This document shows positions 2,468 through 24,339 of a stretch of DNA of 34,241 nt, piece by piece. The DNA is from Catajapyx aquilonaris. Taxonomy: Eukaryota. A model generated the notes under the pieces. The model did not search any database, was not told the DNA's origin, and saw only the letters and a list, made by a program, of their open reading frames with translations. A program made the translations under genes and the position numbers. The DNA lies in NCBI GenBank assembly GCA_000934665.2, contig KZ539071.1, positions 1 through 34,241 on the forward strand, written 5' to 3'. Positions within the stretch are counted from its first letter, which is position 1. Every line of letters starts with the position of its first letter.

Positions 2468-2838
2468 GGCGCGTCTAGTTCCTATAATAAGTTGCTGTCA
2501 CTGCTCCGTAGCATCATGGGAGAAGGGCGTGGGTTGCCAGATGATGTTGACCTTCCCCAAAATTGCGCAACGCTGGACGACGACAACGCCCAATGCGACC
2601 AATTAGGGAGGAGTGCAATCAACAGTTTTGCGAACGACGAGGACACGCGGGTCAGTCAGGCGGTGATTTTTCAACAGAGTAATCTGGGTGAAAATCACAG
2701 ATTTTTTTTTTGGTCAGTAGCAACCAAGTGTCCACATATGTGGACATCGGGTTAGTTTAATATAAATTAACAGATTTTTAAACACATTTATTTTTTTTTA
2801 CAAATCACACAACTTTTCTGTAATATCACCATGCTGCC

Positions 2839-3051
2839 CAAGGGGTTAGCAACTCCCCAAAATAGAGTGCACCAGATCCTGGAACCGGAGGTTCCAGCCG
2901 GTTCCGCCGGTTCCAGCCGGTTCCAGCCGGTTCCGCCGGTTCCAGCCGGTTCCAGCCGGTTCCAGCCGGTTCCGCCGGTTCCAGCCGGTTCCAGCCGGTT
3001 CCGCCGGTTCCACCCGGTTCCACCCGGTTCCAGGGAGTTGCTAACCCCTTG
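2839..3051. mobile_element. hAT-like MITE with internal GCCGGTTCC(A) minisatellite
   Basis: Perfect 19-bp TIR caaggggttagcaactccc (2839-2857) and gggagttgctaaccccttg (3033-3051). 8-bp flanks atgctgcc and atgctgct match 7/8 as a TSD. Interior 2881-3030 consists of 9/10-bp units. Confidence 0.85.
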
Positions 3052-3104
3052 ATGCTGCTTTGTTGCACTACAGTCTTTGTTGTTGTTTACACATTGATTT
3101 TTTT

Positions 3105-5246
3105 TTACAGTGCCCCACCCCACATTCGCACACACAAAGCACCAGTCACGACCAAAAGAGATGTCGTTGTGTAGATGGAACATGCACCACATGTGGAACC
3201 ACCTGAAAATATGACATTTAATGTCTTTTTAAGATTTAAAATATGATGGACTCACCTTGGACCTGGATGGTCTTATTCAACATATCGTGGTCAGCCATGT
3301 CAACATCCGGTTCTTCCAACTGACATGTGTATGTACCTGCATGTTTGCACTCAGCTTTCTGTACCACTAGTCCATCCTGATTTTGCATATATTCCTTGTT
3401 ATCTGGATTGATGGTCTGACCATTGAAAGTCCTAGAAGAAATAGTAGGTCAAGGTCACAGGGTCAAAGGTCAGCTTGGTGTGACATACCATGAGAATTCT
3501 GCACCTGGGATGTCCGTTTTGCATGGTACTACCAATTTGCTGCCTGGAGACATCTGAACAGTGTCTTCTGACATGATGTTGAGGACATGAAGTGCGTATT
3601 CCTTGTTAACACCATTGACGCAGGTGTATACCCCCGCATGGTCAAGCCTGGTCTTGTAAATGGTCAGTGTGGCCACTTTGGCTCTGTTTGGTAGAATCCT
3701 AATTCGCCCTGCGGTAACCCCTGCCGGTACATCACTTCCGTCCTTCTTCCACTGCAGGTTGTCAGTCTCTCTGGCGAAACAGGTGATGGTCACCTCCTGA
3801 CCAGGTACGGCCACCTCCGGACCATCGTACACCACATCAGAACCAGCTGTAAGAAAAATGATTAGCAGTCCGCTAGATGGCCACCTACCATGCTGCCACC
3901 TACTTTCCACAACTCGAACCGAGAAGCCTTTTGTAGACAATGCGGTGCACTTGTAGACACCTGATTGGTCAGCTCGTGCCTTTTCGATGATCAGTTCCGA
4001 CCCTTTGTTAGGTCTTGAGTTGACCTTAACGCCAAATCCGCTCACCACATGTCCATCTTTGGTCCATGCGATGGTCTCTTGGTCCGGGTTGGTACAGTCC
4101 ACTCGAATCTCATCGCCAGCAGGTACGACTCGTGTACCGGTGTACACCACATCTGATCCTGAATAAAAATTACAGGTATGACATGTTGCCAAATTGCCTT
4201 GAAATTACCAGTACAATATAGTAACACGTTGACTGACATGATAATACTAAATTTGACAAGGTGTCATTAAGTGAAGGTCACGTCAAAGACTGTCATCAAA
4301 ATCTAGCCATGAGAACATTGTAACTATTTCAGGATTTTTCACTGCGTGTGTAACGGTCTTGTAACGCGAAGAATAGCCACGGAAGCATCTCCTTTCTTGT
4401 GACCTTCCTGTGTACATGTCTTCGCATACCGTGCCCTTGAAACCGGTATGACATCAGCAGTTATATATTCTAGAGCACCGCAAAAATGTTTTTGCGAACA
4501 TTCGCGAACATTCCCAACAGGCCAGAGCGAGGGTACCGGTTCTAAAAATAAGTCATGTATGCCAGATAGACTATAGATGCGAACTACGTTCGGCGAACAA
4601 TTTCGCGGTGTTCTATATACTCGAACACCCGGCGAAAAATTGTTCGGCGAATTAGTTCGACGAACGCACTATTTCCAACAGGCCAGAGCGAGGGCACCGG
4701 TTCTAAACAAGGTTCTAAAAATAAGTCATATATCATATGCCAGATAGACTATAGATGCGAACTACGTTCGTCGAACAATTTTGCGGTGTTCTATACACTC
4801 GAACACCCGGCGAAAAATTGTTCGGCGAATGTATAGTTCGACGAACGCACTATTTCCAACAGGCCAGAGCGAGGGTACCGGTTCTAAAAATAAATCATGT
4901 ATGCCAGATAGACTATAGATGCGAACTACGTTCGGCGAACAATTTCGCGGTGTTCTATATACTCGAACACCCGGCGAAAAAATTTTCGGCGAACTATTTC
5001 CAACAGGCAATGAGAGGCTACGACTGGTTCTAAAAATAAGTCATGGATGCCAAATCTTTGACCGCATACTATCAAAACCTATTTTAAAAAGCTATAACAG
5101 CAAATTAGTTAAATCTACTTTCATAGTTCATAGTACATACTATGAAATTGGGGTCATCTATAGAGTGTGACAGGATCGATATACAGACCTTGAATGGCGC
5201 CAGTAAGTCCGAGTATAAGAAGAGCTGCTAGTAAACACGACTCCAT
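3105..5246 (-). CDS. Three-Ig-domain protein with signal peptide and GPI-like C-terminus, paralog C, ~314 aa
   Basis: Exons 5246-5189 (MESCLLAALLILGLTGAIQ), 4158-3904, 3846-3489, 3431-3256, 3202-3105. GT-AG, phases consistent (945 nt). Ig motifs DQSGVYKC, DHAGVYTC, KHAGTYTC. Tail GSTCGACSIYTTTSLLVVTGALCVRMWGGAL*. Confidence 0.85.
4514..5045. repeat. Tandem repeat, ~145-180-bp unit, ~3.3 copies, in intron 1 of Ig paralog C
   Basis: Unit ccaacaggccagagcgagggtaccggttctaaaaataagtcatgtatgccagatagactatagatgcgaactacgttcggcgaac... restarts at ~4514, ~4675, ~4856 and partially ~5000. Rich in short palindromes such as gttcggcgaac. Confidence 0.9.
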
Positions 5247-6221: not shown

Positions 6222-6554
6222 CGGGGTAAAATAAATAATTAATAAATACATAAAAATAAAATTGACCTTGGCGGATAGAGTGAATCTGAAAAACCGGAAG
6301 TGGTGGGCCACCGGAAGTTTACCATGAACGCTTAATCCGAATCTGAAAACTGTTTGTTGATATTTCATGCGGTTTAGGCACTGATACCTGTCCACAGACA
6401 GACGGACAGAGCTATAAGAATTTTTTCCCACGAAAAAATGTTTAAAAAAATGTTTTATTGGCAAAATGATACAAAAGTGATAATTGCTGAAAATCTTAAT
6501 CACTATGCACATATTATATAGGCAGGTCCGTAAGCACATTATCCTGTCACATTG

Positions 6555-7576
6555 TTATATAACAAATTGTTCATATGCTTCCAGTAGGGAGTCGAAAGTG
6601 AATAGGCATTTTGATGGACTCTCGATGGGGATGCCAGCTATTCCTGCAGCCTGTGGAAATGACAACAATGAGTCGATTTGCAACAATTAGCCATTGTTGT
6701 CACTGCTTACTTACCAGAGCGATCAAGTCAGGTGTCTCCTTCTGAGGCGTGGTTGGTGGCAGTGGCCTCAAAGGTGCTTCCTCCATCTTGCGAGTTGTGG
6801 TGGCGACCTTGACCTCAACAGGCGGGCATTGGGTCAGGTCAACAATGGGGTGGACAACAAGACGTTGCTGGTGTATCCGAATAAGCTGGCAGTTGTGATG
6901 GTGCAAAATACGTTCCAAACACTGCTTCCTGTTTACCAACTGAAGGACATCAGCATCCAACCGCCTCTTCTTCTCCTCTTCTACTCTCGCCTCCTGAAAA
7001 ATTGACATCGGGGTCATGACCTAGCTAGACACAAAGATGACCATATACTTACGTCAATAAGGGTCAGCATGTTATGAAGTTTCTTATCCCTACATCTGGT
7101 TGCTGCTTCACGGTTCATCAACCGTTTTCTGGCCCTCTTGGCAGCCTGTTCCGGGGTCAGCTGAAATGACCTCAATGTAAGTACGGGATGATGGACAATA
7201 ATTGTTGTGGACATACCTCGTCATCATCATCTCTGGGCCTTCTTCCACCCCTTCTCCTCCGGCCATCCACGGACATGGCTTCCGGGTAGTTGCTGGCTGA
7301 ACTGCTGCTTCTGGAAGTGACCTCACTGCTGGTCATGGAGGTGCTGGAACTGGAGGATTCAACTTTGGACTCCATCAGGTGCTGTCCGGTCAGCTGGTCC
7401 AGTTGCTTCTGAGTTAATCCTAATATTTCCGCCAGGTTTTGCAGGGCAGCTGGGGTCAAATCAGATGGCGATATCTCGAAATCCCATGGCAACTAAGAGG
7501 AGGTCAAAGGTCAGTGGAGGAATTTGGGAGGAATAGTAAAAAAATTATGTGGACTTACCTTAGGTGTATTATCCAT
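6555..7576 (-). CDS. Fos: Fos/kayak-family bZIP transcription factor, copy 1 (~258 aa)
   Basis: Exons 7576-7559 (MDNTPK), 7492-7217, 7160-7053, 6993-6715, 6650-6555, all phase 0 GT-AG. The 108-nt basic-region exon LTPEQAAKRARKRLMNREAATRCRDKKLHNMLTLID has Fos-type intron positions. Zipper ends LERILHHHNC. C-terminal IAGIPIESPSKCLFTFDSLL resembles the arthropod Fos AGIPI.TPS...FNFDSL motif. Confidence 0.85.
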
Positions 7577-7689
7577 TGGCCATCTCACACTGCACGCTGT
7601 TCTCAGAACAGCGTGCAGTGTGAGATGGCCATGGATGGACCCAATCTGGTCATTCTGGTCCGGACATCCTGAGTGAGTCACTCAGGATG
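7577..7689. repeat. Two perfect palindromes upstream of Fos copy 1
   Basis: 27-bp arms 7577-7603 and 7605-7631 with a 1-nt spacer; 12-bp arms 7665-7676 and 7678-7689 centred on TGAGTCA. Absent from copies 2 and 3. Confidence 0.9.
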
Positions 7690-7789
7690 AGGACAAGAGT
7701 GACCAGGTCGGGTCATACCTTTTGGCCTCAGAATCACCTTCCGAGATAAAAACTAGGAATAACCATAACCTTTCAAAAACAAGAGTGTA

Positions 7790-7927
7790 TGACTCATTGT
7801 CATGCATATCTTAAGCCCCTGTAGACCGTGGGAAAGACTTGCAGCCCATTCTTGGCTCTATGGTTATGTGTATAGGGGACCCCTAGACTAGAGGCTGAGT
7901 CATATTTCTGGTTTTATGCATTAGTCA
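7790..7927. promoter_or_regulatory. AP-1 and CSL motif cluster upstream of Fos copy 1 (also in copies 2 and 3)
   Basis: TGACTCA 7790-7796, CGTGGGAA 7827-7834, TGAGTCA 7896-7902, TTAGTCA 7921-7927. Confidence 0.5.
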
Positions 7928-8019
7928 ATATCTTCTGGTATTTGTAGACTACCGTACTCCAAATGCGGAATATACGTAATGGCTTTTTAAATTAAATAAT
8001 CCAATGAATTTAAATCATA

Positions 8020-8155
8020 TCTTCTATATCTATATAAATAAAGCCGTTTGTGATCTGTCTGTCTGCCTGCCTGGAACGCCAACCATCGTTTTCCTGCCAT
8101 CTGTGGTCCGCCTCCTACATCTCCAACCTCTCCCGTCCTTCCGACCCGGCCTGCC
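8020..8155 (+). mobile_element. Possible Helitron-derived 5' fragment (second copy inverted at ~19455-19610)
   Basis: atctatataaataaag followed by a (ctgt)n/(ctgc)n microsatellite, a pattern typical of non-autonomous Helitron heads. No 3' CTAG end identified. Confidence 0.35.
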
Positions 8156-8702
8156 TTTAATTAAGATTCTTAATTACATGTAACACTCGCAAAAATCCGT
8201 ATCTTTCGCACCCCACGCGTCGCAGGGACAAAAAAGAGCCCCCTGCTGATATATCTGACCCGAAATTCACCCTTCTTGCCCACCTTGGCGTCCTTGACCT
8301 AACCACCCCTCCAAGACACGGGTCACTCAGCCAACCCATGACGACCCCCGTCCCTTCTATTCCCGCCAAACCCAGGGATTGTGACTAATCGTCTTGTGCA
8401 CAAGGTACAAGTCCCCCAAGTCCCTTATCTACTTGCCCCCCACGGTTTTACAAATGACNCCCCCATCCCGTGTGTGACCTACGCGGTCAAATACAACAAT
8501 CGTCAACAACCGGCTCAATGCCTCAAAACAATGAAACAGCATGCGCACAATTATTGACTCGATTTTAATTAGTCGGGCCGGTCTCATTAAAATCGACATT
8601 ATTTTCTACACCGCAAATAACTGGCTATGCGTTTGTCTCAATTACAATTAAACGATCATAAAAAAGTCACTATTCAGGTACCTTATACAAGTGTGTACTT
8701 AC

Positions 8703-8735
8703 CTCAGCGTGGGTTTCGTCCATGGTGACGTCCAT
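8703..8735 (-). CDS. Candidate alternative distal first coding exon of Fos copy 1 (MDVTMDETHAE)
   Basis: gccatcATGG context, 33 nt, strong donor GAG|gtaagt, phase 0 compatible with the acceptor at 7492. CCAAT box ~200 nt upstream. Near-identical to 18689-18721. Confidence 0.55.
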
Positions 8736-9366
8736 GATGGCGGGACCTGAGGGCGTTGATGAAGAAGACAATGGTCGGGCACTGAAGAGGGACTGGCCAA
8801 GACGACTTCTCAGGTGGGGAAGAGGCAGAACAATGGACAAGAAGGGTCCTAACTGCCCAAATTAGCGGCGGAATCCGCCCACTTTCTCCCAACCGGAGGA
8901 CCTCTTTGGTTCAAGGACGCGGGTCACTTCGGGTCAGCCAATAGGAACTGGCCTTCCCATCGTCACAAGACCAGCAGTGTGTGTGTCGCAGTCTTCGGCG
9001 CCTGAAATCTGCCTGCATTCTTGACGACTATGAAAAATAGAACAATAGAGCCATATTGTTACTAGTCGAAAATATGACTACGAAAATTTTGAGCACTTAT
9101 TAGTTATTACATACGCAGGTTTACTATTGAGATAGTGACACTGTAATTAATTCGTACATATTTTAAATTTAAAGTAATGTTACACTCAAGAGGGGGCATA
9201 TTGTTACAGTGTACCTGTCCCCGCTAAAAAGTTTTGTTGCAATTATCATTCAGTATTAGTTACAAAAATTTTAATATCGTAATTAGGGAGTGTGTCAATG
9301 TCAACAATGTAGGTGTTCATTGACTTTAAAACATAATTACAAGCCCAGGGAAGCCTAATTACACTA

Positions 9367-9778
9367 CATTGTGCTCTTGATTATCCGGGCTAGTAATGAC
9401 TGCACGGGTGTTGCCGGATAATCGGAAATGGCCATAGAAACCGTAAAAAATGAGCTATCCACAGGTTAGAGATTACCCTGCTTGGTTTAAGCAAAATAAT
9501 AAAACTTATAATATATTTTTTTTACTTTATCTTCTTTAAAAAAAAGCGTTATATTTCTTCGGCGGCGAGACATATTGACAGTGGCGCTAATTTTTGTCCA
9601 CTGCTAGTTACTGATAAGTTAGCAGTAGCAGTGGGACAAATAATTCGACACATTTTTTCGGGCTTTAATTTTAAATATTATTTTTAACTAGTCGTCGCTG
9701 GCTACCCCATTTCTGGGATTATGCCGTGTGTATCTATATGACCGGATAATCCGCACCCGGATAATCGGGCATACAGTG
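9367..9778. mobile_element. Tc1/mariner (pogo-like) MITE
   Basis: Imperfect ~23-bp TIRs cattgtgctcttgattatccggg and cccggataatcgggcatacagtg, flanked by TA on both sides. Partial inverted copy at ~18140-18330. Confidence 0.55.
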
Positions 9779-10120
9779 TATGTGAATACGACATGAAATG
9801 TATAGCGCAACTTTTTAAATAATATTTTAACAATGCTGTGATAAATTATTTCCAATGCAAAATATGGAAAAATATTCAAAGCCTTTTCCACCCTCCTAAC
9901 TTGGCCACCTAAATGGCACCAAGCTTTATCAGATAAGGGTTTCTTAGGACCAACCGCTAATGGCTTGACTAGCCGAAAGCAAAGGGGGACAAAATATGGT
10001 CAGCAGGTCATTCCGACGGGGCATGACCTTCCTTCCTTCCTGATAGCCTCAAGTGACATTCCCAGCCACCCCTGACTCCATTATGTCGCATGGTCAGTTT
10101 CAGAGGCTATTGTTTCAGAG

Positions 10121-10490
10121 GCTTCTGCGTGCCCAACGTTGGCGCGTATTACGTCTATACGTAATCGACTCTTACGTGTTCAACCCGAAACTCGACAGAG
10201 CCATACACTCATCAAGGTCACTCGCAATCGACAAAGTCGATTGACGTCAAAATGACGTCGCCAATGCCGACCAGGGCAGGAGGAGAATTGGCGACGTCAT
10301 TGTGTCGTCAATCGACATTGTCGATTGCGAGTGACCTTGGTGAGTATATGGCTCTTGGACTGCTGAATCGTGCGGGTAATGCTCGAGAATATCTGGTTCG
10401 AGATATTTTAGTAAGAAAAGCTTTATCTGAAACTATTGTGTCGAAAGAAACACTTATGAAGGAAATCCGATTACGTGGTCCGCAACGTGG
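10121..10490 (+). pseudogene. Decayed fragment of the Dpy-30/Arg-rich gene (matches ~16437-16232 inverted), interrupted by a palindromic element
   Basis: Translates to LLRAQRWRVLRL... and LGLLNRAGNAREYLVRDILVRKALSETIVSKETLMKEIRLRGPQ. Carries a 2-nt frameshift and an insertion at 10197-10355, and has no 5' part. Confidence 0.85.
10197..10355. mobile_element. Fold-back (palindromic) MITE-like insertion carrying CRE motifs
   Basis: ~69-bp near-perfect arms 10197-10265 and 10287-10355. The empty site is visible in the intact gene (ctcaac^ttggact). TGACGTCA at 10242-10249. No clear TSD. Confidence 0.8.
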
Positions 10491-11140
10491 TGCGTAGAAT
10501 ATATTGCTGCCATTTCGGATCGATTCCTGTCCATTTTGCAGAAGTCATCGATATCTGACTTTCGGTTATAACAGAGTCGAATGGCCGGTCCTGAAAAACT
10601 TCCATAAGGCACTGTGTATTTTTTACTCCTGATATAACATACTCATTTTTACCTCACCTTGGCTATAATGGACCATTGCATTTGGTACCTCGGCGGCAAA
10701 ATGTGCTGTTTTTGACTATTATTCCACTTCCTTTCCCACGCAAGGAAGGCAGAGAATACTGGAATAAGGTGATTTTAGCATCCGTCACTGATTTAAGCTA
10801 ATCAATCAATTTTCTGGTATATTTGGCGACACGGAGACGATAGAAGAAAATTGCGGGAATTTTGTCCTCAATGATTTAAGGGTGAGCTAATTTTGCATTT
10901 TTGTGGTTTGTTTCATTAATCACTTTGCAGTAGTGTGCATTGTAGGCAAGTAGAAAACTTGTGTATTCGCTGCAAAATTGGCGAATAGGCTATGACAGAC
11001 TTCGGTTATAACATACTTGTAAATGTAAAAAAAATGTTTTATTGGCAAAATGATACAAAAGTGAAAATTGCTGAAAATCTTAATTACTATGCACATAATT
11101 ATTATATTGGCAGGTCCATAAGCACATTGTTGTACAATTG

Positions 11141-12146
11141 TTAATATGCTTCCAGTAGGGAGTCGAAATTGAAGAGGCCTTTTGATGGACTCTCGATGGG
11201 GATGCCAGCTATCTCTGCAGCCTGTGGAAATGACAACAATGAGTCGATTTGCAACAATTAGCCATTGTTGTCACTGCTTACTTACCAGAGAGATCAAGTC
11301 AGGTGTCTCCTTCTGAGGCGTGGTTGGTGGCAGTGGCCTCAAAGGTGCTTCCTCCATCTTGCGAGTTGTGGTGGCGACCTTGACCTCAACAGGCGGGCAT
11401 TGGGTCAGGTCAACAATGGGGTGGACAACAAGACGTTGCTGGTGTCTCTGAATAAGCTCGCAGTTGTGATGGTGCAAGATACGTTCCAAACACTGCTTCC
11501 TGTTTACCAACTGAAGGACATCAGCATCCAACCGTCTCTTCTTCTCCTCTTCTACTCTCACCTCCTGAAAAATTGACATGGGGGTCATGACCTATCAAGA
11601 CACAAAGATGATCATACTTACGTCAATAAGGGTCTGCATGTTATTAAGTTTCTTTTCCCAACATCTGGCTACTGCTTCACGGTTCATCAGGCGTTTTCTG
11701 GCCCTCTTGGTAGCCTGCTCAGGGGTCAGCTGAAATGACCTCAATGTAAGTAGGGGATGATGGACAATAATTGTTGTGGACATACCTGGTCATCATCATC
11801 TCTTGGCCTTCTTCCACCCCTTCTCTTCCGGTCATCCATGGGCATGGCTTCCGGGTAGTTGCTGGCTGAACTGCTGCTTCTGGAAGTGACCTCACTGCTG
11901 GTCATGGAGGTGCTGGAACTGGAGGATTCAACTTTGGACTCCATCAGGTGCTGTCCGGTCAGCTGGTCCGGTTGCTTCTGAGTTAATCCGAATATTTCTG
12001 CCAAGTTTTGCAGGGCAGTTGGGGTCAAATCAGAAGGCGATATCTCGAAATCCCATGGCAACTATAGAGGAGGTCAAAGGTCAGTGGAGGAATTTGGGAG
12101 GAATAGTAAAAAAATTATGTGGACTTACCGTAGGTGTAATATCCAT
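11141..12146 (-). CDS. Fos: Fos/kayak-family bZIP, copy 2 (~253 aa), basic region altered (NREAVARCW)
   Basis: Exons 12146-12129, 12061-11786, 11729-11622, 11564-11286, 11221-11141. Open frame with GT-AG introns. C-terminus AAEIAGIPIESPSKGLFNFDSLLEAY*. Confidence 0.85.
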
Positions 12147-13059
12147 GACCATCTCACACTGCACACTGTTCTCACTCAGGATGTCAGGACAAGAATGACC
12201 CGGTCGGGTCATATACCTTTTGGCCTCAGAATCACCTTCTGAGATAAAAACCAGGAATAACCATAACCTTTCGAAAACAAGAGTGTATGACTCCATGTCA
12301 TGCATATCCTAAGCCCCTGTAGACCGTGGGAAAGACTTGCAGCCCATTCTTGGCTCTATGGTATATGTGTACAGGGGACCCCCAGGCTGAGTCATATTTC
12401 TGGTTTTATCCATTAGTCAATATCTTCTGGTATTTGTACTCCAAATGCGGAAGAGACTTTTGAAAATGGGCATCACATTTCAATTGCGATATATGTAAAA
12501 TTTATTTACGTGCAGAATAATGAATAACTATTCAAAAGCAAGGTCATGCTCTTCATGCCTTTCAGGCCAATCACAGGCCGACCTGCACCACATGACCCAT
12601 CACAGAACCACCCTGACAACATGCTCCTATATTATGAACCCAAAAGTTTCACTGAACACAATACTGTAAATTTATTATGCGGTATGACTTTTTAAAGCAA
12701 ATTTATTTGCAAGATTTTGTTGCCAATTCAGGTGACTACATTTACGGGTATATGCGTTTGGCGCACAAAATGCTTTTATATCTGGCTAATATGGAAAATT
12801 GCCTCACTATATTTTGCGAAAATCTCACGCCATGTAAAAATTACTACCTGTTATTTTGTAACTTGTTCCACCCCTAACTTGGCCACCTAAATGGCACCAA
12901 GCTTTATCAGATAAGGGCTTCTTAGGACCAGCCGCTAATGGCTTGACAAGCCGAAAACGATAATAATATACGTAAATGGTCAGCAGGTCATTCCGACGGC
13001 GCCCTTCCCAATGACCTCAGTCCCCCTTCCTTCCTGATAGCCTCACGTGGCATTCCAGC

Positions 13060-13175
13060 CAGGCAGAGCATGGAAGTGTGCTCGACGACGCCGACGATGT
13101 GACTGACAACGACGTGCCAGAAGGAAGCGTCATCGGAAAAGACATGCTAAACTGCGACGGGTTACGAAGACAAAT
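13060..13175 (+). pseudogene. Second decayed fragment of the Dpy-30/Arg-rich gene (Arg-rich segment, matches ~16624-16516 inverted)
   Basis: gcatggaagtgtgctcgacgacgccgacgatgtgactgacaacgacgtgccagaaggaagcgtcatcggaaaagac versus intact gcatggcagtgtgctcgacgccgacgccgacgtgacagacaacgacgtgccagaaggaagcgtaatcgg. In-frame TGA; preceded by a copy of the gene's upstream region (12870-13060). Confidence 0.75.
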
Positions 13176-13311
13176 CGGTTATAACATACTTGCAAATGTA
13201 AAAAAATGTTTTATTGGCAAAATGATACAAAAGTGATAATTGCTGAAAATCTTAATTATTACTATGCACATATTATATTGGCAGGTCCATAAGCACATTG
13301 TTGTACAATTG

Positions 13312-14315
13312 TTAACATGCTTCCAGTAGGGAGTCGAAAGTGAAGAGGCCTTTTGATGGACTCTCGATGGGGATGCCAGCTATCTCTGCAGCCTGTGGAA
13401 ATGACAACAATGAGTCGATTTGCAACAATTAGCCATTGTTGTCACTGCTTACTTACCAGAGAGATCAAGTCAGGTCTCTCCTTCTGAGGCGTGGTTGGTG
13501 GCAGTGGCCTCAAAGGTGCTTCCTCCATCTTGCGAGTTGTGGTGGCGACCTTGACCTCAACAGGTGGGCATTGGGTCAGGTCAACAATGGGGTGGACAAC
13601 AAGACGTTGCTGGTGTATCCGAATAAGCTCGCAGTTGTGATGGTGCAAAATACGTTCCAAACACTGCTTCCTGTTTACCAACTGAAGGACATCAGCATCC
13701 AGCCGCCTCTTCTTCTCCTCTTCTACTCTCACCTCCTGAAAAATTGACATGGGGGTCATGACCTAGCTAGACACAAAGATGCCCATACTTACGTCAATAA
13801 GGGTCAGCATGCTATGAAGCTTCTTGTCCCTACATCTGGCTGCTGCTTCACGGTTCATCAGGCGTTTTCTGGCCCTCTTGGTAGCTTGCTCAGGGGTCAG
13901 CTGAAATGACCTCAATGTAAGTGGGGGATGATGGACAATTGTTGTGAACATACCTGGTCATCATCATCTCTGGGCCTTCTTCCACCCCTTCTCCTCCGGC
14001 CATCCACGGACGTGGCTTCCGGGTAGTTGCTGGCTGAACTGCTGCTTCTGGAAGTGACCTCACTGCTGGTCACGGAGGTGCTGGAACTGGAGGATTCAAC
14101 TTTGGACTCCATCCGGTGCTGTCCGGTCAGCTGGACAGGATCCGGTTGCTCAGTTAATCCGAATATTTCAGCCAGGTTTTGCAGGGCAGTTGGGGTCAAA
14201 TCAGATGGCGATATCTCGAAATCCCATGGCAACTAGAGGAGGTCAAAGGTCAGTGGAGGAATTTGGGAGGAACAGTAAAAAAATTATGTGGACTTACCTT
14301 AGGTGTACTATCCAT
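13312..14315 (-). CDS. Fos: Fos/kayak-family bZIP, copy 3 (~254 aa)
   Basis: Exons 14315-14298, 14232-13954, 13900-13793, 13735-13457, 13392-13312. Basic region KRARKRLMNREAAARCRDKK intact. C-terminus ...GLFTFDSLLEAC*. Confidence 0.85.
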
Positions 14316-14840
14316 GGCCATCTCACACTGCACACTGTTCTCACTCAGGATGTCAGGGCAAGAATGACCAGGTCGGGTCATACCTTGGCCTTAGAACCAG
14401 TCATACATCACCTTCCGGGATAATCATAACCTTTCAAAAACAAGAGTGTATGACTCATTGTCATGCATATCTTAAGCCCCTGCAGACCGTGGGAAAGACT
14501 TCAGCACACTCTTGGCTCTGTGGTATGTGTATAGGGGACCCCTATAGGCTGTGAGTCATATGTCTGGTTTTATCCATTAGTCAATATCTTCTGGTATTTG
14601 TACTCCAAATACGGAAGAGACTTTTGAAAATTGGCACATTTCAATTGCGAATTTGCGATATTTTATTTACGATAGTAATTATGAACTCAAAAGTTTCACT
14701 GAGCGTGTATTTATAGGTTTTGAAATTTTTTTAAAAAATGACAATTCAACAGTATGCTTAAACACCAACAATAATGGTCACCAGGCTGAACAATCATTCC
14801 TCAACGTTCATGGATTTTGCTGGCCATTGCTGAATCTTCT

Positions 14841-15364
14841 TCAGGATTCAAATGTGTCTCCAGTAACCAATCCATACAATAAGGCAAGACTAACAATGTC
14901 AGCATCTATCTGATGGTCATCTGCTGACCTCCATCCACTATCAGCAGGAAGGTGTCCAGCTGTGTCCGGATAAGATGCTTCTAAGGATTCGAAGAACTCC
15001 TGAACCATATCGCCGTCCAGTACTGGAAGAGGTGGTATGTCATCTTGATGATGCAGTTGCAAATATTCTGTTGGTTGCTGGGCAACGAGTGGTTGATCAA
15101 CAGTGGCAGGATCCTAAACATATCGAACAAGTTGTTGATTCTTGTTGCTCTTGGTAACAATATAATATGGAATGGACGTACCAAAAGACCACTGGTGTCA
15201 CTGTAGTCAGCCCCAAATCCACATGACTCCAGATACTCCTGGACAATGCTCCATTCCAGCTCTTCGTCCCAATGGTCCTGAATCGGGTCTGATGGACCCT
15301 GTTGCTCGGCAGTAGGGCTTGAGGTGAGATCTTGTGGAGAACAGGTTCCTGTCAAATTCAACAT
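14841..15364 (-). CDS. Acidic orphan protein, two coding exons (~150 aa; true 5' end uncertain)
   Basis: ORF 14981-15391 joins ORF 14841-15062 in phase 0 through a 68-nt GT-AG intron (15181-15114). Internal repeat IVQEYLESCGFGADYSDTSG / MVQEFFESLEASYPDTAG. The frame is open from a possible acceptor at 15418. Confidence 0.55.
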
Positions 15365-15569
15365 ATCAAACACCTGATGGACTGTGGACAACTGTCGTGG
15401 TCCAATGTTATGGACGATCTGTTAGTGTAAACAAGATTCACGAAGTTGGCTTGGTGATATGTTGACGATGGTTGTCTATAGCAATACAACAATCTGCCTG
15501 TTGGCACCACTTATTCCTCGTAGAGTGTCATGAAGAAAAGTTGAACACAAACAAGTTTATTCACAATAA

Positions 15570-16841
15570 TTATTGAGATTTCTTAGACATTTTTCGATGG
15601 CCTTTAGAATGCTTTCTATTCATTACAGTTGTTCTGACATAATCACCAAAGCTCCTATGAAGATAATTCCTGGCTCCAGTACCATGAGATGGATCTTCTA
15701 CAAATCGAATTGTTTTCCGACGAGGACTATCCTCAACAACTTCACACACACCGTCCTTACATTCAAGACTATCATGCTGGCCATTATCTTTTGATTGATC
15801 CTTCTGTTCAATGCTCACTTCAGCAAGTTCAGACATTCCAGATTGATCCTGTTGTTCAGTAGCTTTTTGATCAGTTCCTTCTAGAGATAGCTTATGTGGA
15901 GAACTACTTTGAGCAGCAGATGGTGATTCTCTAGAACTATAAGTTTCTGCAGTATGCGGCCGCCGATAAGTCTGACATTTTGGCGATTCAAACTTTTCAG
16001 GCAGATTTTCTCGCGGTACTTTTTGTGATAGAATTTCTCGCGGAACTTTTTCTGATAGAGTTTCTCGCGGAACTTTTTGAGATAGAACACCTCGTAATCG
16101 AACATCTCGTGATTGTGTTATAGGAAATAGAGCATCTCGAAATCTGACACCTCGAGAGAGACTTGTGTGAAACAGGGTTTCTCTCAAGCGAGTCACATGA
16201 GAGGGATCCAATTGAGATAGAGCTTGACGATATTGAGGACCACGTGATCGGATTTCCTTCATTAGTGTTTCTTTCGACTCAATAGTTTCAGATAATGCTT
16301 TTCTTACTAAAATATCTCGAATCAGATTTTCTCGAGCATTACCAGCACGATTCAGTAGTCCAAGTTGAGTTTCGGGTTGAATACGTAAGAGTCGATTTCG
16401 TAGACGTAATACGCGCCAACGTTGAGCACGCAGAAGTATACGTCGTTGTTGAGCATGACGTTGTCGAGAACGTAAGCTTCGAACTTTCGAGGCCTTTGGA
16501 CGTTCTGTATCATCTTTTGTCTTAGCCCGTCGCAGTTTAGCACGTCTTTTCCGATTACGCTTCCTTCTGGCACGTCGTTGTCTGTCACGTCGGCGTCGGC
16601 GTCGAGCACACTGCCATGCTGTGCGCATCAGATGACTTCGAAGTTTTCGGTTGTAATGTGGGGGAGGGTACGTGCGATTTTCATGCTCGTACTCCGAGCT
16701 GACCTTCAGGAGCATGCAGAAGAGGTGGTACATCGGGTCCGGGGGTCGAACCCTGTCCAATGAAGTGACCGCAACCAGAAGCCCAGGGGCTATTTTGCGG
16801 TTTATGTAACACCTGAAAGACGAGGTGTTGATGGGATTCAT
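15570..16841 (-). CDS. Dpy-30 (D/D)-motif protein with protamine-like Arg-rich region and peptide repeats, 423 aa
   Basis: N-terminal RCYINRKIAPGLLVAVTSLDRVRPPDPMYHLFCMLLK aligns by eye to the Dpy-30 motif [37 protein letters not shown]. Followed by CARRRRRRDRQRRARRKRNRKRR and 9-aa repeats LS(Q/E)KVPRE. AATAAA lies just after the stop. Confidence 0.75.
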   Translation of the reverse strand: MNPINTSSFRCYINRKIAPGLLVAVTSLDRVRPPDPMYHLFCMLLKVSSEYEHENRTYPPPHYNRKLRSHLMRTAWQCARRRRRRDRQRRARRKRNRKRRAKLRRAKTKDDTERPKASKVRSLRSRQRHAQQRRILLRAQRWRVLRLRNRLLRIQPETQLGLLNRAGNARENLIRDILVRKALSETIESKETLMKEIRSRGPQYRQALSQLDPSHVTRLRETLFHTSLSRGVRFRDALFPITQSRDVRLRGVLSQKVPRETLSEKVPREILSQKVPRENLPEKFESPKCQTYRRPHTAETYSSRESPSAAQSSSPHKLSLEGTDQKATEQQDQSGMSELAEVSIEQKDQSKDNGQHDSLECKDGVCEVVEDSPRRKTIRFVEDPSHGTGARNYLHRSFGDYVRTTVMNRKHSKGHRKMSKKSQ

Positions 16842-16908
16842 CTCTTCCTTAATCTGTGGGTCAAATGATTAATACTTTTTAATTAAATATGAATTTTTTA
16901 ATGAGCTC

Positions 16909-17092
16909 AACCGAGTGCGCAACACAGTTCGCGCAAATTGTTTCCAACACTAATCTTGAGGGAATAACAATCTGGTCAACATTTGCGATGTTGCCAAGTC
17001 TTTGCAACGAGGCTTAGAGGCCTCTACGAAGTAACTGTGGCAACGTTGTGTCAGAACAATGGACTTGCGCGAGTGTGAATGCGCACTCGGTT
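16909..17092. mobile_element. Small TIR element (MITE-like)
   Basis: 13-bp perfect inverted ends aaccgagtgcgca (16909-16921) and tgcgcactcggtt (17080-17092) in AT-rich flanks. TSD not clear. Confidence 0.45.
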
Positions 17093-17229
17093 ACACTAGT
17101 TAAAAAATCTAAAGTAGGGTACTGTATGTGGTATACTGAAGTTGATTATTATTTAATATTTTCATATTTATTGATATTATTTTAAAATGGCGGTTAAATT
17201 TTTTTTCAAATTAGTACAACAATTACCTT

Positions 17230-17512
17230 CGATAAATATCGAGGAACACTGCCAGTACTGCTGTCAACAGAGCCCTTTCCGTCATTCGTTGTCTTATTAC
17301 TTGTCCCTCTCCTGGTTCCCTTTTGACCAGGCAGGTCGAAGGAGACATGCTGAGAAGCTAAGAACAAATTTTGATGGTAAGATAAGGAGAGCATCCAAAC
17401 CCTTCTCACCAAGCTTCCCACATTTTTATCTTATCTCAGAACCGGGAATCGAACCCAGGACCCCAGAGGTGGAGGTGACAATAAGGCATTGGCCATTTGG
17501 CACCATGCTTAC
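17230..17512 (-). mobile_element. tRNA-derived SINE (second family; 3' boundary approximate)
   Basis: Minus strand reads ...tggtgccaaatgg... then gggttcgattcccgg (B box, ~17441-17456), followed by a non-tRNA body. Confidence 0.5.
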
Positions 17513-17799
17513 CAATAGATGGTCCTCTTCTAGCAGGACCTTTAGTTACAGATGCTTTGGCAGCCGGTGACTTGGCGACACCTGAGCAAAGGACAAATTA
17601 TGGTGATTTTGTGAATATGTGAATTTGCATAATAAAGAGCTGAGTCACTTATACCTTCTTTCGGGCCCATCTTTCAGAATTGTTCCGAAAGCCAAACAAT
17701 GCAACAATGCGTTACATAGCGACATTGTTCTGTAAGCCTGTTACTATAGATGGGTAAAAACAGGAATTGACCTTGGCAAAAAAAAACCGGATTTAGCTC

Positions 17800-19650
17800 A
17801 CAATAGCCTCTGAAACTGACCATGCGACATAATGGAGTCAGGGGTGGCTGGGAATGTCACTTGAGGCTATCAGGAAGGAAGGAAGGTCATGGGAAATGCC
17901 CCGTCGGAATGACCTTCTGACCATATATTGTCCCCCTTTGATTTCGGCTAGTCAAGCCATTAGCGGTTGGTCCTAAGAAACCCTTATCTGATAAAGCTTG
18001 GTGCCATTTAGGTGGCCAAGTTAGGAGGGTGGAAAAGGCTTTGAATATTTTTCCATATTTTGCATTGGAAATAATTTATCACAGCATTGTTAAAATATTA
18101 TTTAAAAAGTTGCGCTATACATTTCATGTCGTATTCACATACACTGTATGCCCGATTATCCGGGTGCGGATTATCCGGTCATAGCTAAAAATACATACAT
18201 AACACACGGCATAATCTCAAAAATGGGGTAGCCAGCGACGACTTGTTAAAAATAATATTTAAAATTAAAGCCCGAAAAAATGTGTCGAATTATGTGTCCC
18301 ACTGCTACTGCTAACTTAGCAGTAACTAGCAGTGGACTAGTAACTATATGGCTCTATTGTTCTATTTTTCATAGTCGTCAAGAATGCAGGCAGATTTCAG
18401 CGGATTTCAGGCGCCGAAGACTGCGACACACACACTCTGCTGATCTTGTGACGATGGGAAGGCCAGTTCCTATTGGCTGACCCGAAGTGACCCGCGTCCT
18501 TGAACCAAAGAGGTCCTCCGGTTGGGAGAAAGTGGGTGGATTCCGCTGCTAATTTGGGCAGTTAGGACCGAGGTTAGGACCGTTCTTGTCCATTGTTCTG
18601 CCTCTCCCCCACATGAGAAGTCGTCTTGGCCAGTCCCTCTTCAGTGCCCGACCATTGTCTTCTTCACCAGCTCTCAGGTCCCGCCATCATGGACGTCACC
18701 ATGGACGAAGCCCACGCTGAGGTAAGTACACACTTGTATAGGGTACCTGAATAGTGAATTATTTAGAATCGTTTAATTGTAATTGAGAGTGGCCACCATT
18801 TTGATTTGAATAATTTCAAAAATTGACCGTTTAAAATTCTTTTAAATTGCGCTTAAAATGAAGCCTGAAATGTTTTCGTGAGGTTTTCGCAAAATATAGA
18901 GAGGCCATTTTCGATATTAGCCGGACATAAAAGCATTTTATGCGCCGCAAGCGCTTACCCGTAAATGTAGCCACCTCATTTGGCAACAAAATTTCACAAA
19001 AATATTCATTCTAAAAATTTATGCCGCATGTTATAATATGAGAAAGCTTGATTCAAGAACTCTACCGGCCTAGGTAATAGTAAATACCGATGTTAATGAC
19101 CAATTAAAAAAGAAAAATATTGCATTAAGTTGGAAGAGACCTCAATTTTTAAGTGCTCATAAATGTTGTATTGTTGTCTACGGACGTCCAAATGAATTGT
19201 CACGTGGCTCAATGATGAGCTCAATGATATATCGATTCACACATGTGACTGATCGATCCGCCGGATCCTATCCACTCTGACAAATTTCAACAAATAGTGC
19301 ATTTCCCGCTGCCCAACTAGAAAAATGTATACTCGAGTCACGCTCACGTCATTTGCCAATCTGATTTATTAACTAACTAGCTACGTCGTTGCTCAGGAAG
19401 AAATGAATGGAAAGCAAGCTGAAAAGGACAGGAAAAAAAATACAATCAATGGCAGACCGGGTCGGAAGGACGGGAGAGGTTGGAGGTGTAGGAGGCGGAC
19501 CACAGATGGCAGGCATCCGACGGTTGGCGTTAGGTTGGCGTTCCAGGCAGACAGGCTGGCAGACAGACAGGGTACATATGGCTTTATTTATACAGATATA
19601 GAAGATATAATTTAAATTCATTGGATTATTTAATTTAAAGAGCCATTTCA
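17800..19650. repeat. Inverted segmental duplicate of ~7980-10115 (region between Fos and the Dpy-30 gene)
   Basis: 17800-18330 is the reverse complement of ~10112-9590; 18340-18790 of ~9065-8635; 19455-19650 of ~8150-7980. ~18900-19030 matches ~12830-12690. Confidence 0.9.
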
Positions 19651-20682
19651 CCTTAGTATCATTCAAATCTATTTAATTATCTCAAAAATACATTTTTATA
19701 TGAGTAAATTTTTAAACATAAATTGGCACTTAGATCACGCTTGTGCGTGACATGTTGTTACGACTTTGGTGTCACATACAGTATATTTCGTAACACATGA
19801 CACTATATGAACTGTCCAGTGCTTGTATTTTGTCGTACTGTCTCCCAATGATGATTTTATCTAATACCAATATTGACCTTTCCAGTTGGCCCGTCCGTCT
19901 TATGCTGTGCTGGAGTCCACTGTTGGATTGTCCATCAGTGGCTGCAGTGGCAGCTCTTCCAGCAACCAGCAGGCCACATTGCCCGTGGATGGCCAGAAGA
20001 GGAGAGGCGGAAGGAGGCCTAGAGAAGACGATCAGCAGGTACGACACACGACAATTGTTAATCATCCCCATACTCACCTTGATTGTCATGTCAGATGACA
20101 CCTGAGCAGGCGGCCAAGAGGGCCAGGAAACGGCTGATGAACAGGGAAGCAGCGGCCCGATTCAGGAGTAATCAGGCTCAAGATATGGTGTACCTGATGC
20201 ATGTAAGTGTGCTGGTATCTTATGATGCTCATATGTGTTTCACCATATGTGCTTACGCCCATGTGCTATTTTCAGAATATCAGACTTGAACAGGATAGGC
20301 AGAATCAGCTGGACGGGGAGGTCAATGATCTGAACATCACAAGGCAGGGTATGCAGCTTATGCTGGAGGAGCACACTGCCATCTGTCCGTTTATGCTGAT
20401 CAACGGAAATCAACAGCAACAACGACAGCAGCAGCAGCAGATGATGATGACCATGACCCCACAGGCAGTCGTTGGCATGCCTGGTCCCCACACCCCTACT
20501 GCAGTACCTGTTCAGAGGAACTACAATGCACAGGTGGCGCCAAATAATATTATCTATATGGTAAGAATCATCAAATAGCAGCTATTTTGACTTACAGGAC
20601 TGGCAATAATGTTATTTTGTTTCCATAGGCTCTTGAGATGGCTGGAATCAACCCCGAGAGTCCAACTCGACTGACAGAATGA
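18689..20682 (+). CDS. Fos: Fos/kayak-family bZIP, copy 4 (divergent, ~210 aa, poly-Q)
   Basis: Exons 18689-18721 (MDVTMDEAHAE, tentative first exon), 19886-20038, 20095-20202 (108 nt, MTPEQAAKRARKRLMNREAAARFRSNQAQDMVYLMH), 20276-20560, 20629-20682 (ALEMAGINPESPTRLTE*). All phase 0 GT-AG. Confidence 0.8.
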
Positions 20683-20989
20683 AGAGGTAGGGAGTAGCGA
20701 AAAGATAGTCTCTGATGGTACTGATGTACCGACTTGGAGACAGGATATTAAGTGTTTTGTCAACTTAATCGACTAATACCACTCTACTTCCAGATATGGT
20801 TGTCCTTGGCAGTGAAAAGCACAAGTAACGAGAATCTATTGGACCTGCATGATTTTGGACAGAGCTGGCTTCTGGACATGGACAGATGAACAGATGGAAC
20901 CAACAACCAACCTTTCGGATTAAAATATAATTATGTACTATACATCACACTGTATATAGGAATAAAATTAATATTGCTGATGTAGTGCC

Positions 20990-21490
20990 TCGAATATTGC
21001 TGTCATTTCGGATAGATTCCTTCCAATTTTGCAGGTCATCGGCATCAGACATTCGGTTATAACAGACTCGAATGGCCTGTCCTGGGAAACTTCCATAAGG
21101 CGATGTGTATTTTTACTCCCGATATAACATACTCATTTTTACCTCACCTTGGCCATAACGGACCATTTTTTGGTACCTCGGTGGGAAAATATGCTGTTTT
21201 TGACTATTCCATTTCCTTTCCCAAGCAAGGAAGGCAGAGAATACTAGTAATGTGATTATAACATCCGTCACTGATCTAAGCTACGCAAAACCACCCCTTT
21301 TCTGGTATATTTGCGACGCGGAGACGACAGAAATGGAAGGCCCGTTCTCATTGGCTGACCCGAAGTAATCAATGTCCCCCAACCAGAAAGGTCCTCCAGT
21401 TGGGAGAAAGTGATGGGTGGAGTCCACTGCTAATAATTTGGGCAGGTAGAACTTGGGTAGGACCCTCTTTCCCATTGTCCTGCCTCTTCC
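20990..21490. repeat. Direct duplicate of ~10495-10850 followed by a decayed third copy of the Fos distal promoter (~18465-18610)
   Basis: Shared ttcggttataacaga.tcgaatggcc...acatactcatttttacctcaccttggc; then attggctgacccgaagt...ggtcctcc.gttgggagaaagtg. Confidence 0.8.
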
Positions 21491-21808
21491 CTTGCCTGGT
21501 TCACTCAAGTTATACCTACAGATATAGAGTCTTCCCTTTGTATGTACGTATATAAGCAGCCCCAAAAATAAATTCATTGGTCAGGCCCTGGAAGGTTCCT
21601 GGACAGTTCCTGGAAGTGAATTTTATCATATAAAAATTACATTAAAATGTTTTCAGAAAAACCTTTAATTATGCATTTCCTATACTCACTATTGAGTTTT
21701 CAAATGTCACTTTTTGTAGGTGCATTTTTCTTTTGTGAGTATAGTCCACATAACAAGATATTCCCCAGCATGGTTAAAAGCTGTTCTTGAGTCTCCAGGT
21801 TGCAGCAG

Positions 21809-23951
21809 TTATTGGCACTGGAAACCTGGAATTGCAGGCCATATTTGGTTGGGCTCACAGATGGAGTAAGCATAGGGGAATCCAGTGGTGCTCTGGTAAG
21901 GAGTCTTGCACTGGTACATGGCCATGGTGCCCTCCACATGCAGAACGTCACTGCATTGCACTTCTGTCCCACTCGGTTTGTAGCATCTCACCTCTTGGTT
22001 CTCGGACAACGGAGGAGCCTCACAAGTGACCACATACTCAACTGACAAAAAAGTGCAGTAATGGAAGGCGTATATGGTTTAGAAGAGAAAGTTAACCAAC
22101 AATACTTAACTTACCTCCACGTCTTTTACACACCGATGCATACAATATGTATTTTGATGCGCTTCTCACAGTCATTCGACCTCCACTAGCTATGGTCAAG
22201 AACGCAAAGTGGTAAAACCCTCGCCTTCTTTGAGGATGGCCTTCAGACCATTTTCTACAGTAGAGGAATTTTGTATTTACAGATTATTCATACTGTTCAT
22301 TAGTAATGGATTGTACTTGCAGAAATGTGGAGTTAGTTGGAACAGTGCGTCCATCTGTCCACTCCCAGACTCCATCCCGGTCCGTGTCTGACAGACCAAT
22401 CCAGTAAAGGTCATCTATGAAGTTTTTCGTAACATATTCCAACCATTCCTGTAATCGATCAGACTTGGTGCACATAGTTTCACCTATACTGTATAAGGTA
22501 TAGTCCCAAACAATACCATTTCTGCAGGTGAATTGATGGAAATTAAGTATCCGTCCTCTCGCTTGCAAAATGCGTTCGCGTCGTCCCATGACATGTAAAA
22601 TATTTTCAGAGCCAACAAGTAGCAGCTTGAAGAACCGCGTCTCGGATACCAATGGTCTGGACAATTCCCATTGGCTCCGTTTCCATTCTCTGAAACACAT
22701 TACCTAGACTGAATGAATTTGAATTCACCGCGGTTTTCTGAGAGAAATATAAGTACACACAGAAAAATTGCCGCGTCAGGTGACACGCTATGGTAGTCAG
22801 GTGACGATATCCAGTTTGACTCGCCAAGCAGAGTCAGGTTCACTCTCCAAACAAGTCGCCTGACACCTCAGGGGAGTCAAAGGACACCCCAGAGGAGTCA
22901 AATTACTCACCTTTTTAAAGGTGAGTAATTTGACTCCTCTGGGGTGTCCTTTGACTCGCCAGGATGGTCGAGAGACTCCCCAGGGTCATCAGTAGACCCG
23001 CCAGGATAGTCAGAGCAGTTCTAATCGGGGAGGGGTGGTCCTTTGACTCCCCTGAGGTGTCAGGCGACTTGTTTGGAGAGTGAACTGACTCTGCTTGGCG
23101 AGTCAATCTGGATATCGTCACCTGACTACCATAGCGTGTCACCTGACGCGGCCATTTTTCTGTGTGATATGTAACTCTAAAGTACCTTTCTCGCATACAA
23201 ATTGCCAGATTTCCTTACAACCGTGGTCAATAAACCTGTGGTATTCCCCGCTACTTGATAACACGCAGTCTTCGCTGTAGATTCCTTTGTGTAGGTGGTC
23301 AATGTCCCAGGTTCTGTAATAGAATAGGGTTGTAGAATTTTTTTTTACAGCAAGTTCACGGGTACTTGCGTACAGAGATGTGTCATTGTTATAATCATTG
23401 CCATCCACATCCACCCACTTCCATTGGTAGGTTCCGTCGTTGGAAGATGCTTCAGTTGCTCTCAGTCCAATCCACCACCTTCCTACAACCGTAGCCCCTA
23501 ATACTTTGCGACTAATTCTTGAAGCTATCCACTCCTGAATTTAGGACATGGTTAGCATAATAATTATGATCATGTACCAAAAGACTGAACACCACGGGGT
23601 CTCCTCACCAATTCTTTCTCCGAGTTGATAACCAGAAGGTCTGATTTATGATTTTGGCATGATTCACGTGCTTCTTGCCATGTCAGTGCTTCATCCTGAA
23701 GCAGATAGCAGTAAGGCTCGTCCGGAGGAGAGATCCAATTATGGGGACATTTAGTAGCTGAAGGTTGTGATTTTAGGACATCAGGCATGATATATCAGTG
23801 TTCAAAGAAAGTGACTGACGAACAGCCAAAATGGTCAACACCCCCAGAAACTGAACGATGATAAAATTTTATTATTATTGCATAACTTACTGTCTGCAGA
23901 AATACAGGTTATGAAGAGGAAAATGCAACAGAACAATCCACTTGAATCCAT
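21809..23951 (-). CDS. Secreted 2xC-type-lectin-domain + Sushi/CCP-like protein, subtype A (CTL1, ~390 aa)
   Basis: Exons 23951-23891 (MDSSGLFCCIFLFITCISAD), 23757-23609, 23534-23374, 23313-23186, 22689-22517, 22448-22321, 22254-22115, 22041-21809. CP..W...CY and WIGL motifs occur twice. C-terminal CEAPP..C..C..EGTMAMYQC..PY..C....W......C. One GC-AG intron. Confidence 0.9.
22756..23166. mobile_element. Long-TIR fold-back MITE (CAC...GTG termini; CACTA/EnSpm-like) in CTL1 intron 4
   Basis: ~130-bp inverted arms starting cacacagaaaaa (22756) and ending tttttctgtgtg (23166). Nested perfect 41-bp palindrome 22874-22914 / 22917-22957. Absent from the homologous introns of CTL3 and CTL4. Confidence 0.85.
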
Positions 23952-24339
23952 TGCATACCAAAGTTACTTGTAAGCACGTATGCTGCGCCAGGATGTACAG
24001 CGATAGGGCGACCACATCAGGAAAAGACAATATTCGTTCCTGCCTGTCCCAAGCTACAACTATGAGGTAATGATAAGCAAATGTGAAGTTCCTTTGAAGT
24101 TCCTGCTGGAAGTGAATTTTATCATATTAAAAATTACATTAAAATATTTTCAGGAAAACCTTTATCTATGCATTTCCTATACTCACTATTGAGTTTTCAA
24201 ATGTCACTCTTTGTAGTGCATTTTCTTTTGTGAGTCACCCAAATAATAAGATATTCCCCGCCACACACATCCTGAATGTCTGATAACATCACTCGACATG
24301 CAACCAGTCTGGGCTAATACTCATTACCAGCAGCACCTT

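Follow-up and report, generated by a model that had tools for sequence, protein, structure and literature searches.

The stretch of Catajapyx aquilonaris DNA analyzed here, called the window below, is the entire 34,241-nucleotide contig C2258 (KZ539071.1) of a 286-Mb genome, and four basic leucine zipper (bZIP) genes lie within it at 6555-20682. Comparison with the other bZIP genes of the genome indicated that these four genes, hereafter copies 1-4, derive from Fos (kayak), that all four have lost the C-terminal tail of Fos, and that they share a rebuilt basic region held under constraint. We propose that they encode tail-less Fos-type partners of Jun that modulate AP-1, a reading to which we assign a probability of about 0.5. 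Gene structure, Fos origin, tail loss and the constraint on the basic exon are its established part; expression, pairing and DNA binding we infer.

Copies 1-3 lie head to tail on the minus strand, and copy 4 lies on the plus strand. Each consists of five coding exons separated by phase-0 GT-AG introns, and the open frames of 258, 253, 254 and 210 amino acids (copies 1-4, respectively) contain no internal stops; the first coding exons, and with them the 5′ ends, are predicted models in all copies. In all four, a 108-nt exon encoding the basic region stands between phase-0 introns (AG and GT ends), KRARKRLMNREA is invariant, the heptad repeat runs in register, and an AATAAA signal follows the stop codon. 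With the basic exon alone, the Pfam profile bZIP_1 scored 31.6 bits for copy 1 and 31.1 bits for copy 3 against a cut-off of 27.6, and copies 2 and 4 gave sub-cut-off matches (E = 1e-4 and 5e-4). Exon 5 of copies 1-3 carries AGIPIESPS..F(T/N)FDSLL, of which copy 4 has AGINPESPT only. These gene models confirmed the original prediction, made from the DNA letters, of four open-frame Fos-like genes with a 108-nt exon, Glu at the second zipper d position (d2) and an L..H...C zipper end. Most of its motif readings held as well, except that copy 2 reads NREAV and not NREAA, and that EARVE is found in copy 1 only, copies 2 and 3 having EVRVE. The exons of the four genes are as follows.

6555..6650, minus strand: copy 1 exon 5 and stop, Fos-type GIPIESPS..FTFDSLL motif, tail lost
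6715..6993, minus strand: copy 1 exon 4, zipper heptads 2-5, His, Cys, PLRP
7053..7160, minus strand: copy 1 exon 3, 108-nt basic region, all five base-contacting residues retained
7217..7492, minus strand: copy 1 exon 2, LTP block, Ser-rich stretch, GGRRP
7559..7576, minus strand: copy 1 proximal first coding exon (model), with a 75-nt fold-back insertion and one extra base upstream
11141..12146, minus strand: copy 2, exons 12146-12129, 12061-11786, 11729-11622, 11564-11286 and 11221-11141
13312..14315, minus strand: copy 3, exons 14315-14298, 14232-13954, 13900-13793, 13735-13457 and 13392-13312
18335..18788, plus strand: copy 4 promoter region and first exon (18689-18721), ATTGG box, strong start context
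19886..20682, plus strand: copy 4 exons 2-5 (19886-20038, 20095-20202, 20276-20560, 20629-20682), Gln-rich stretch after the zipper

A census of the genome gave 41 bZIP-profile matches, of which 30 were retrieved and 27 lying outside the window were read. It placed a single canonical Fos gene on contig C34, ATF3 on C1649 and Jun genes on C466 and C546; the named relatives of this Fos, among the best 120 of 740 matches, were arthropod kayak proteins. The exon layout of the canonical Fos is that of all four copies, with a 108-nt basic exon and phase-0 introns both around it and before the last exon. The copies also share with arthropod Fos the LTP block, GGRRP, the TPE start of the basic exon, the His and Cys at the zipper end and the GIPI..PS..FxF.SL motif. 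The Fos-specific motifs outside the bZIP that were compared are the GGRRP-bearing block of exon 2 and GVPI..PS..FNF.SL of exon 5. For exon 2 in every copy and for exon 5 in copies 1-3, the match to the canonical Fos was better than that of any of 2000 shuffles, and exon 5 of copy 4 gave no significant match to it (162 of 2000 shuffles as high). Because these motifs and the exon layout, which lie outside the bZIP, match Fos, the copies are best described as Fos-derived.

Descent from ATF3 or another bZIP family, with a likeness to Fos only, was weighed against this origin. ATF3, a short Jun partner that is often a repressor, possesses a 108-nt exon in this genome too, and this exon by itself is not diagnostic of Fos. 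Within the bZIP, ATF3 is equally close to the copies: basic exon identity is 10-15 of 36 residues to ATF3 and 12-14 of 36 to the canonical Fos, and zipper identity to the latter is 10-11 of 38. Approximately unbiased (AU) tests, with 69 columns for ATF3 and Jun, rejected none of four alternatives (p = 0.09-0.34), including the grouping of the copies with ATF3 (p = 0.34) or with Jun (p = 0.23); taken alone, the bZIP does not place the copies nearer Fos than ATF3, and trees of it cannot decide. The best trees nest the copies, on long branches, within the Fos clade (86/96) and, in a separate tree, as sister to the canonical Fos (88/76). Fos and ATF3 are sister families according to PMC4736632. 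The sequences following the zipper in the copies (exon 4 tails and exon 5) gave no significant match to the ATF3 tail, with 440-1986 of 2000 shuffles as high, and share no motif with it, whereas they and exon 2 carry the Fos motifs described above. The five-exon layout and the Glu at d2 are common to the copies and the canonical Fos and not to ATF3, which keeps Leu at d2 and has its own gene on C1649. An ATF3 or other non-Fos parentage is, in our judgment, extremely unlikely, and the evidence supports the local, fast-evolving expansion of Fos-derived genes that had been predicted, with the canonical Fos retained on C34. A PDB sequence search gave weak matches only, to JunD and Gcn4 (E = 0.03-0.07).

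At the zipper d positions, copies 1-3 have L-E-L-L-L-H and copy 4 has L-E-L-L-M-H, in each case with a Cys after them; a zipper of five leucines and a His is found in none of them, d2 being Glu in all four and in the canonical Fos, whose zipper exon (locus L036:5982-6359, minus strand) begins ETEEE. In the other arthropod Fos proteins, d2 was Leu in 79 of the 80 surveyed among the 120 matches listed (40 that run into introns or are too short were omitted), and the exception is an intron read-through. Glu at d2, common in this comparison to the copies and the canonical Fos only, supports the origin of the copies from the Fos of this genome; the simplest reading is that it arose in the Fos of this lineage and that the copies inherited it. 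The Leu-to-Glu change had originally been interpreted as altered partner choice of the sub-family. Because the canonical Fos shares the Glu, d2 is not a mark of the copies, and on present sequences the partner-change argument falls, unless the canonical Fos changed its partner as well.

Identity among copies 1-3 is 92-93% across 1.2-1.5 kb, and the original prediction had allowed that they might be uncollapsed haplotypes; an assembly error at one locus was weighed together with this. We examined three DNA runs, all from one sample that is possibly the source of the assembly. No contig joins one copy to the next, and one N stands at 8459. Against a single locus, the three versions have different flanks, their sequence changes fall in near-equal measure on each of the three branches (0.078, 0.080 and 0.079), and a DNA search of the genome with the copies placed all four matches on this contig with no allelic contig elsewhere. 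In all three runs copy 4 was covered by one contig without differences, and the spacer between copies 2 and 3 was covered by identical contigs at a depth of 20-38. The contig common to the copies had depths of 81, 60 and 85, compared with 33-35 for a 2.3-kb unique contig, and the summed depth of the three bins holding most of exon 4 was 124, 96 and 116, roughly threefold that of the unique contig, although contig depth is a hint only and not a copy number. Depth and genome search speak against haplotypes, and copies 1-3 are probably not uncollapsed alleles; we consider the single-locus explanation highly unlikely.

We next consider the basic region and the selection acting on it. In Fos, 24 of 33 basic-region positions are invariant in all 79 proteins compared among the matches listed, and nine of these carry one shared replacement residue in all four copies. 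Ratios of nonsynonymous to synonymous change (dN/dS) were obtained by our own codon-model likelihood fit, with a counting method as second test. In the basic exon dN/dS was 0.19 between copy 4 and copy 1 (p = 0.0005) and 0.23 between copy 4 and copy 3 (p = 0.002); over a 24-codon basic core, a stretch picked after the data were seen, it was 0.05. For the zipper the same comparisons gave 0.70-0.78, indistinguishable from 1. The synonymous difference is 0.55-0.60 in the basic exon and 0.43-0.49 in the zipper, and because it is not reduced in the former, recent gene conversion does not explain the conserved basic exon. When copy 4 is compared with copies 1 and 3, no part is under tighter constraint than the basic region. 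The "diversified basic regions" of the original prediction hold insofar as they differ from Fos, and not between copy 4 and copies 1 and 3, where constraint prevails; the residue changes of consequence are specific to single copies, namely copy 2 and copy 4. Base contacts in Gcn4 and Jun/Fos are made at five positions, N, A, A, C/S and R (PMC6545440). The corresponding Asn, Ala, Ala, Cys and Arg are intact in copies 1 and 3. In copy 2 the second Ala is Val and the invariant Arg is Trp, and in copy 4 the Cys is Phe.

Selection among copies 1-3 themselves bears on whether the young copies are still in use. The dN/dS check that had been suggested for them gave a value below 1 by counting (0.55, p = 0.03) and one that does not differ from 1 by likelihood (0.64, p = 0.13). 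None of the three has a stop or frameshift, although introns and flanks hold 4 and 16 indels; there is one in-frame indel in 762 coding bases compared with 4 in 244 intron bases (p = 0.03, counting one indel just before the start as exonic). Diversifying selection on the basic exon (14 of 108 sites, compared with 5 of 114 in the zipper, among copies 1-3; p = 0.03) was considered and rejected, since the gene-wide scan gave p = 0.22. A birth-and-death history, in which the sub-family was once functional and one or two copies still are, the young ones being mostly redundant and drifting and copy 2 on its way to becoming a pseudogene, would fit the likelihood estimate, the Val and Trp of copy 2, the disturbed proximal start of copy 1 and the wealth of recent direct and inverted duplications on the contig, which include broken pieces of a neighboring open reading frame (ORF). 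It accords less well with the open frames of the young copies, with the counting result and with the basic-exon constraint across the old split from copy 4, and we regard it as possible but doubtful.

The tail of the canonical Fos, which runs from GTGL through SSPD to PKLVSL, is absent from all four copies; the GTGL motif is present in 67 of the 80 arthropod Fos among the matches listed and in the canonical Fos. This loss, overlooked in the original prediction, leads us to file the copies as Fos-derived variants and not as ordinary kayak members. They differ from arthropod Fos further in lacking the AGFVPP block and the RPTSL motif, in their length of 210-258 amino acids compared with at least 389 for the canonical Fos, and in forming a cluster in place of a single gene. 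The dominant-negative Fos of flies is reportedly a bZIP fragment. A cricket paper calls the tail region the C-terminal regulatory domain (PMC6140108), the DeltaFosB splice form of vertebrates, without two C-terminal degrons, is stable and long-lived (PMC5408019), and a dominant-negative Fos construct is in use in flies (PMC2845820).

Our proposal that the copies modulate AP-1 was built on the absent tail together with the stability of DeltaFosB and the analogy to the fly construct. The proteins would pair with Jun through a zipper that retains the Fos core pattern, and copies 1 and 3 would bind AP-1-type sites. With the tail gone, the copies would escape its control and compete with the canonical Fos, and AP-1 output would be damped or prolonged, as by truncated FosB. 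Copy 2 would pair but bind DNA poorly, and copy 4 may favor a shifted DNA site. The zipper a positions of copies 1-3 follow the Fos pattern (small, Lys, Val/Ile, Lys, Leu), and copy 4 has Gln and Arg at the two core a positions where copies 1-3 have Lys. Lys at two zipper core positions disfavors self-pairing. A complex prediction of the copy 1 zipper with the canonical Jun was uninformative either way (score 0.06, mark 0.34).

Several points weigh against this proposal. In a crude count of g-e′ charges with the canonical Jun, copy 1 has three attractive and three repulsive pairs (copy 4, one and one), compared with three and none for the canonical Fos. The role of the insect tail as a degron and kinase target is carried over by analogy from vertebrate Fos and from fly work, and several Ser/Thr-Pro sites remain in the copies, so that kinase control may be partly kept. 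In the comparison of copy 4 with copies 1 and 3, the zipper does not depart from dN/dS of 1, nor does the likelihood value among copies 1-3, and copy 2 is without two base-contacting residues. Finally, none of the runs listed is recorded as RNA. A 170-base contig from run X5 (a second study, kind unrecorded) at depth 2.8 covers 6801-6970 within copy 1 exon 4; it is identical to copy 1 and differs from copy 2 at 5 and from copy 3 at 3 places. Having neither a splice joint nor a library record, it was not counted as a sign of expression.

A second Jun gene, overlooked in the original prediction, lies on C546 (locus L038:3637-4428, plus strand). It is a single open frame of 263 codons with Pfam Jun and bZIP_1 matches above the cut-offs; the basic region is unchanged, and the zipper, with Lys at the third d position and Gly-Gly, has diverged. 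The copies could form a parallel AP-1 by pairing preferentially with this Jun, or with one another, reading DNA sites of their own as activators of a separate program, copy 4 by way of a Yap-like Phe. Consistent with this, the same crude charge count is better with the second Jun, at three attractive and one repulsive pair for copy 1 and two and none for copy 4, and the nine replaced positions of the basic region were changed alike in the four copies and are under selection. Copy 4 further has a Gln-rich stretch, and the Phe at its Ser/Cys position is one of the two marks of yeast Yap factors, which PMC6545440 gives as Gln where Gcn4 has Ala239 and Phe/Tyr where it has Ser242. The canonical Fos, however, counts three and none with either Jun, so that the count shows no separate pairing; two consecutive d positions would be polar in a copy joined to the second Jun; and copy 4 has Ala where Yap has Gln. 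A parallel AP-1 of this kind is unlikely. Wider still would be a second AP-1 system of the lineage, in which the canonical Fos is charged at d2, the tail-less copies and the second Jun read their own sites, and copy 2 is a naturally occurring inhibitor and copy 4 a variant in specificity; this we hold to be decidedly unlikely.

Other known systems resemble the copies in part. In DeltaFosB, as in the copies, the basic region and zipper are kept and the C-terminal tail is gone; the two differ in that DeltaFosB arises by splicing (PMC5408019) and its bZIP is unchanged, whereas in the copies the truncation is fixed in separate genes whose bZIP has changed. The likeness of copy 4 to the Yap factors is limited to one residue, the Phe at the Gcn4 Ser242 position, and there is no homology beyond the bZIP. 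The vertebrate c-Fos, FosB, Fra-1 and Fra-2 are likewise Fos duplicates beside a parent gene, but the vertebrate Fos family members keep a nearly unchanged basic region, whereas here duplication was local and the basic region was rebuilt. The split of Fos from ATF3 and the vertebrate expansion are described in PMC4736632 and PMC8369891. Our literature searches, which covered listings and the starts of abstracts and had subscription papers and supplements outside their scope, returned no arthropod Fos cluster of this kind. Protein searches by word matching, started from the zipper exons of the canonical Fos and of copy 1, matched 0 of 113 and 0 of 155 candidates, which is weak evidence. Among 1.84 billion representatives, a profile built from the basic exons of the four copies found no close relative and did not reach ordinary Fos, so that it excludes close relatives only; its sole match, a repeat protein over 11 positions, was judged to be chance. 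A Fos-derived, tail-less sub-family with a rebuilt, constrained basic region would thus be a variant not seen in the literature searched.

The history of the locus can be outlined tentatively. The Fos gene would have been duplicated to this site long ago and changed rapidly until the new basic region settled under constraint; copy 4 and the lineage leading to copies 1-3 would then have diverged (synonymous distance near 1), and copies 1-3 would have formed recently in tandem (synonymous distance 0.07-0.08). A recent inverted duplication would have placed the promoter and first exon of copy 4 before copy 1: the stretch 7978-10485 reproduces 16233-19647 in patches and in inverted orientation, with 83-95% identity. 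The copy 4-derived promoter and first exon, which the original prediction had overlooked, are 91% identical to their source and lie 1.2 kb before copy 1 exon 2, to which exon 8735-8703 splices in frame as a candidate alternative start. Alternative first exons onto one acceptor are usual in kayak, and two isoforms are reported for cricket kayak in PMC6140108. Because this exon stands in frame upstream and the proximal start carries the 75-nt fold-back insertion, copy 1 may be a chimera under the promoter of copy 4. A third partial copy of that promoter, 75-79% identical, lies just downstream of copy 4 at 21335-21491. The regulatory features are as follows.

8636..9067, minus strand: inverted copy (91%) of copy 4 promoter and first exon, carrying exon 8735-8703
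7790..7902, no strand assigned: two AP-1 sites (TGASTCA), 210-330 nt upstream of the copy 1 proximal first exon
12388 in copy 2, which retains one of the two, and 14451 and 14552 in copy 3: homologous AP-1 sites
6454..6459, minus strand: AATAAA of copy 1, 96 nt past the stop
11043-11038 (copy 2), 13215-13210 (copy 3) and 20961-20966 (copy 4): AATAAA of the other copies

The window holds 12 AP-1 sites compared with 6.3 expected, a number as high in 3 of 100 shuffles; several of the sites are copies of one another and not independent, and AP-1 feedback control of the genes is a possible lead only.

Several other features were observed. Pfam places a Dpy-30 motif at the N terminus (E = 5e-5) of an intronless 422-codon ORF at 16841-15573 (minus strand), which also contains a stretch rich in Arg and a 27-nt repeat; broken pieces of this ORF lie at 10122-10485 and 13063-13174, it has no Atlas match, and the canonical Dpy-30 is on C285. 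A possible two-exon gene at 15364-14844 (minus strand, 68-nt intron) would encode an acidic protein of 151 amino acids and is present once in the genome; its second exon has no Pfam match, and it was rejected as a Fos first exon (best E = 0.05 among 121 proteins). At 1488-4204 (minus strand) lie exons of a gene encoding several immunoglobulin domains. In the region 21600-34241, C-type lectin and sushi-domain genes are clustered on both strands, and large duplications there, inverted as well as direct, show 68-85% identity. Fold-back inverted repeats of 65-420 bases occur at 22756-23166, 10197-10355 and 7571-7714, and the repeat near 10200-10355, which falls in a high-depth bin, may be a mobile element. 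Elsewhere in the genome, three divergent zipper exons at L014 (C2936), L018 (C11368) and L019 (C4524) resemble the bZIP in L010, which we take to be CREB3-like; L018 and L019, almost the same in sequence, may be alleles.

Should the copies be no more than redundant duplicates in a region rich in duplications, their value lies in careful annotation. Because the basic region of arthropod Fos is nearly frozen, intact copies in which it was rebuilt and then held by selection would amount to a natural experiment on bZIP DNA contacts, partner choice and control, and a canonical Fos with Glu in the zipper core would offer a rare test of the weight of a single d position in AP-1. If our proposal is true, the copies may tune the AP-1 stress-response switch.

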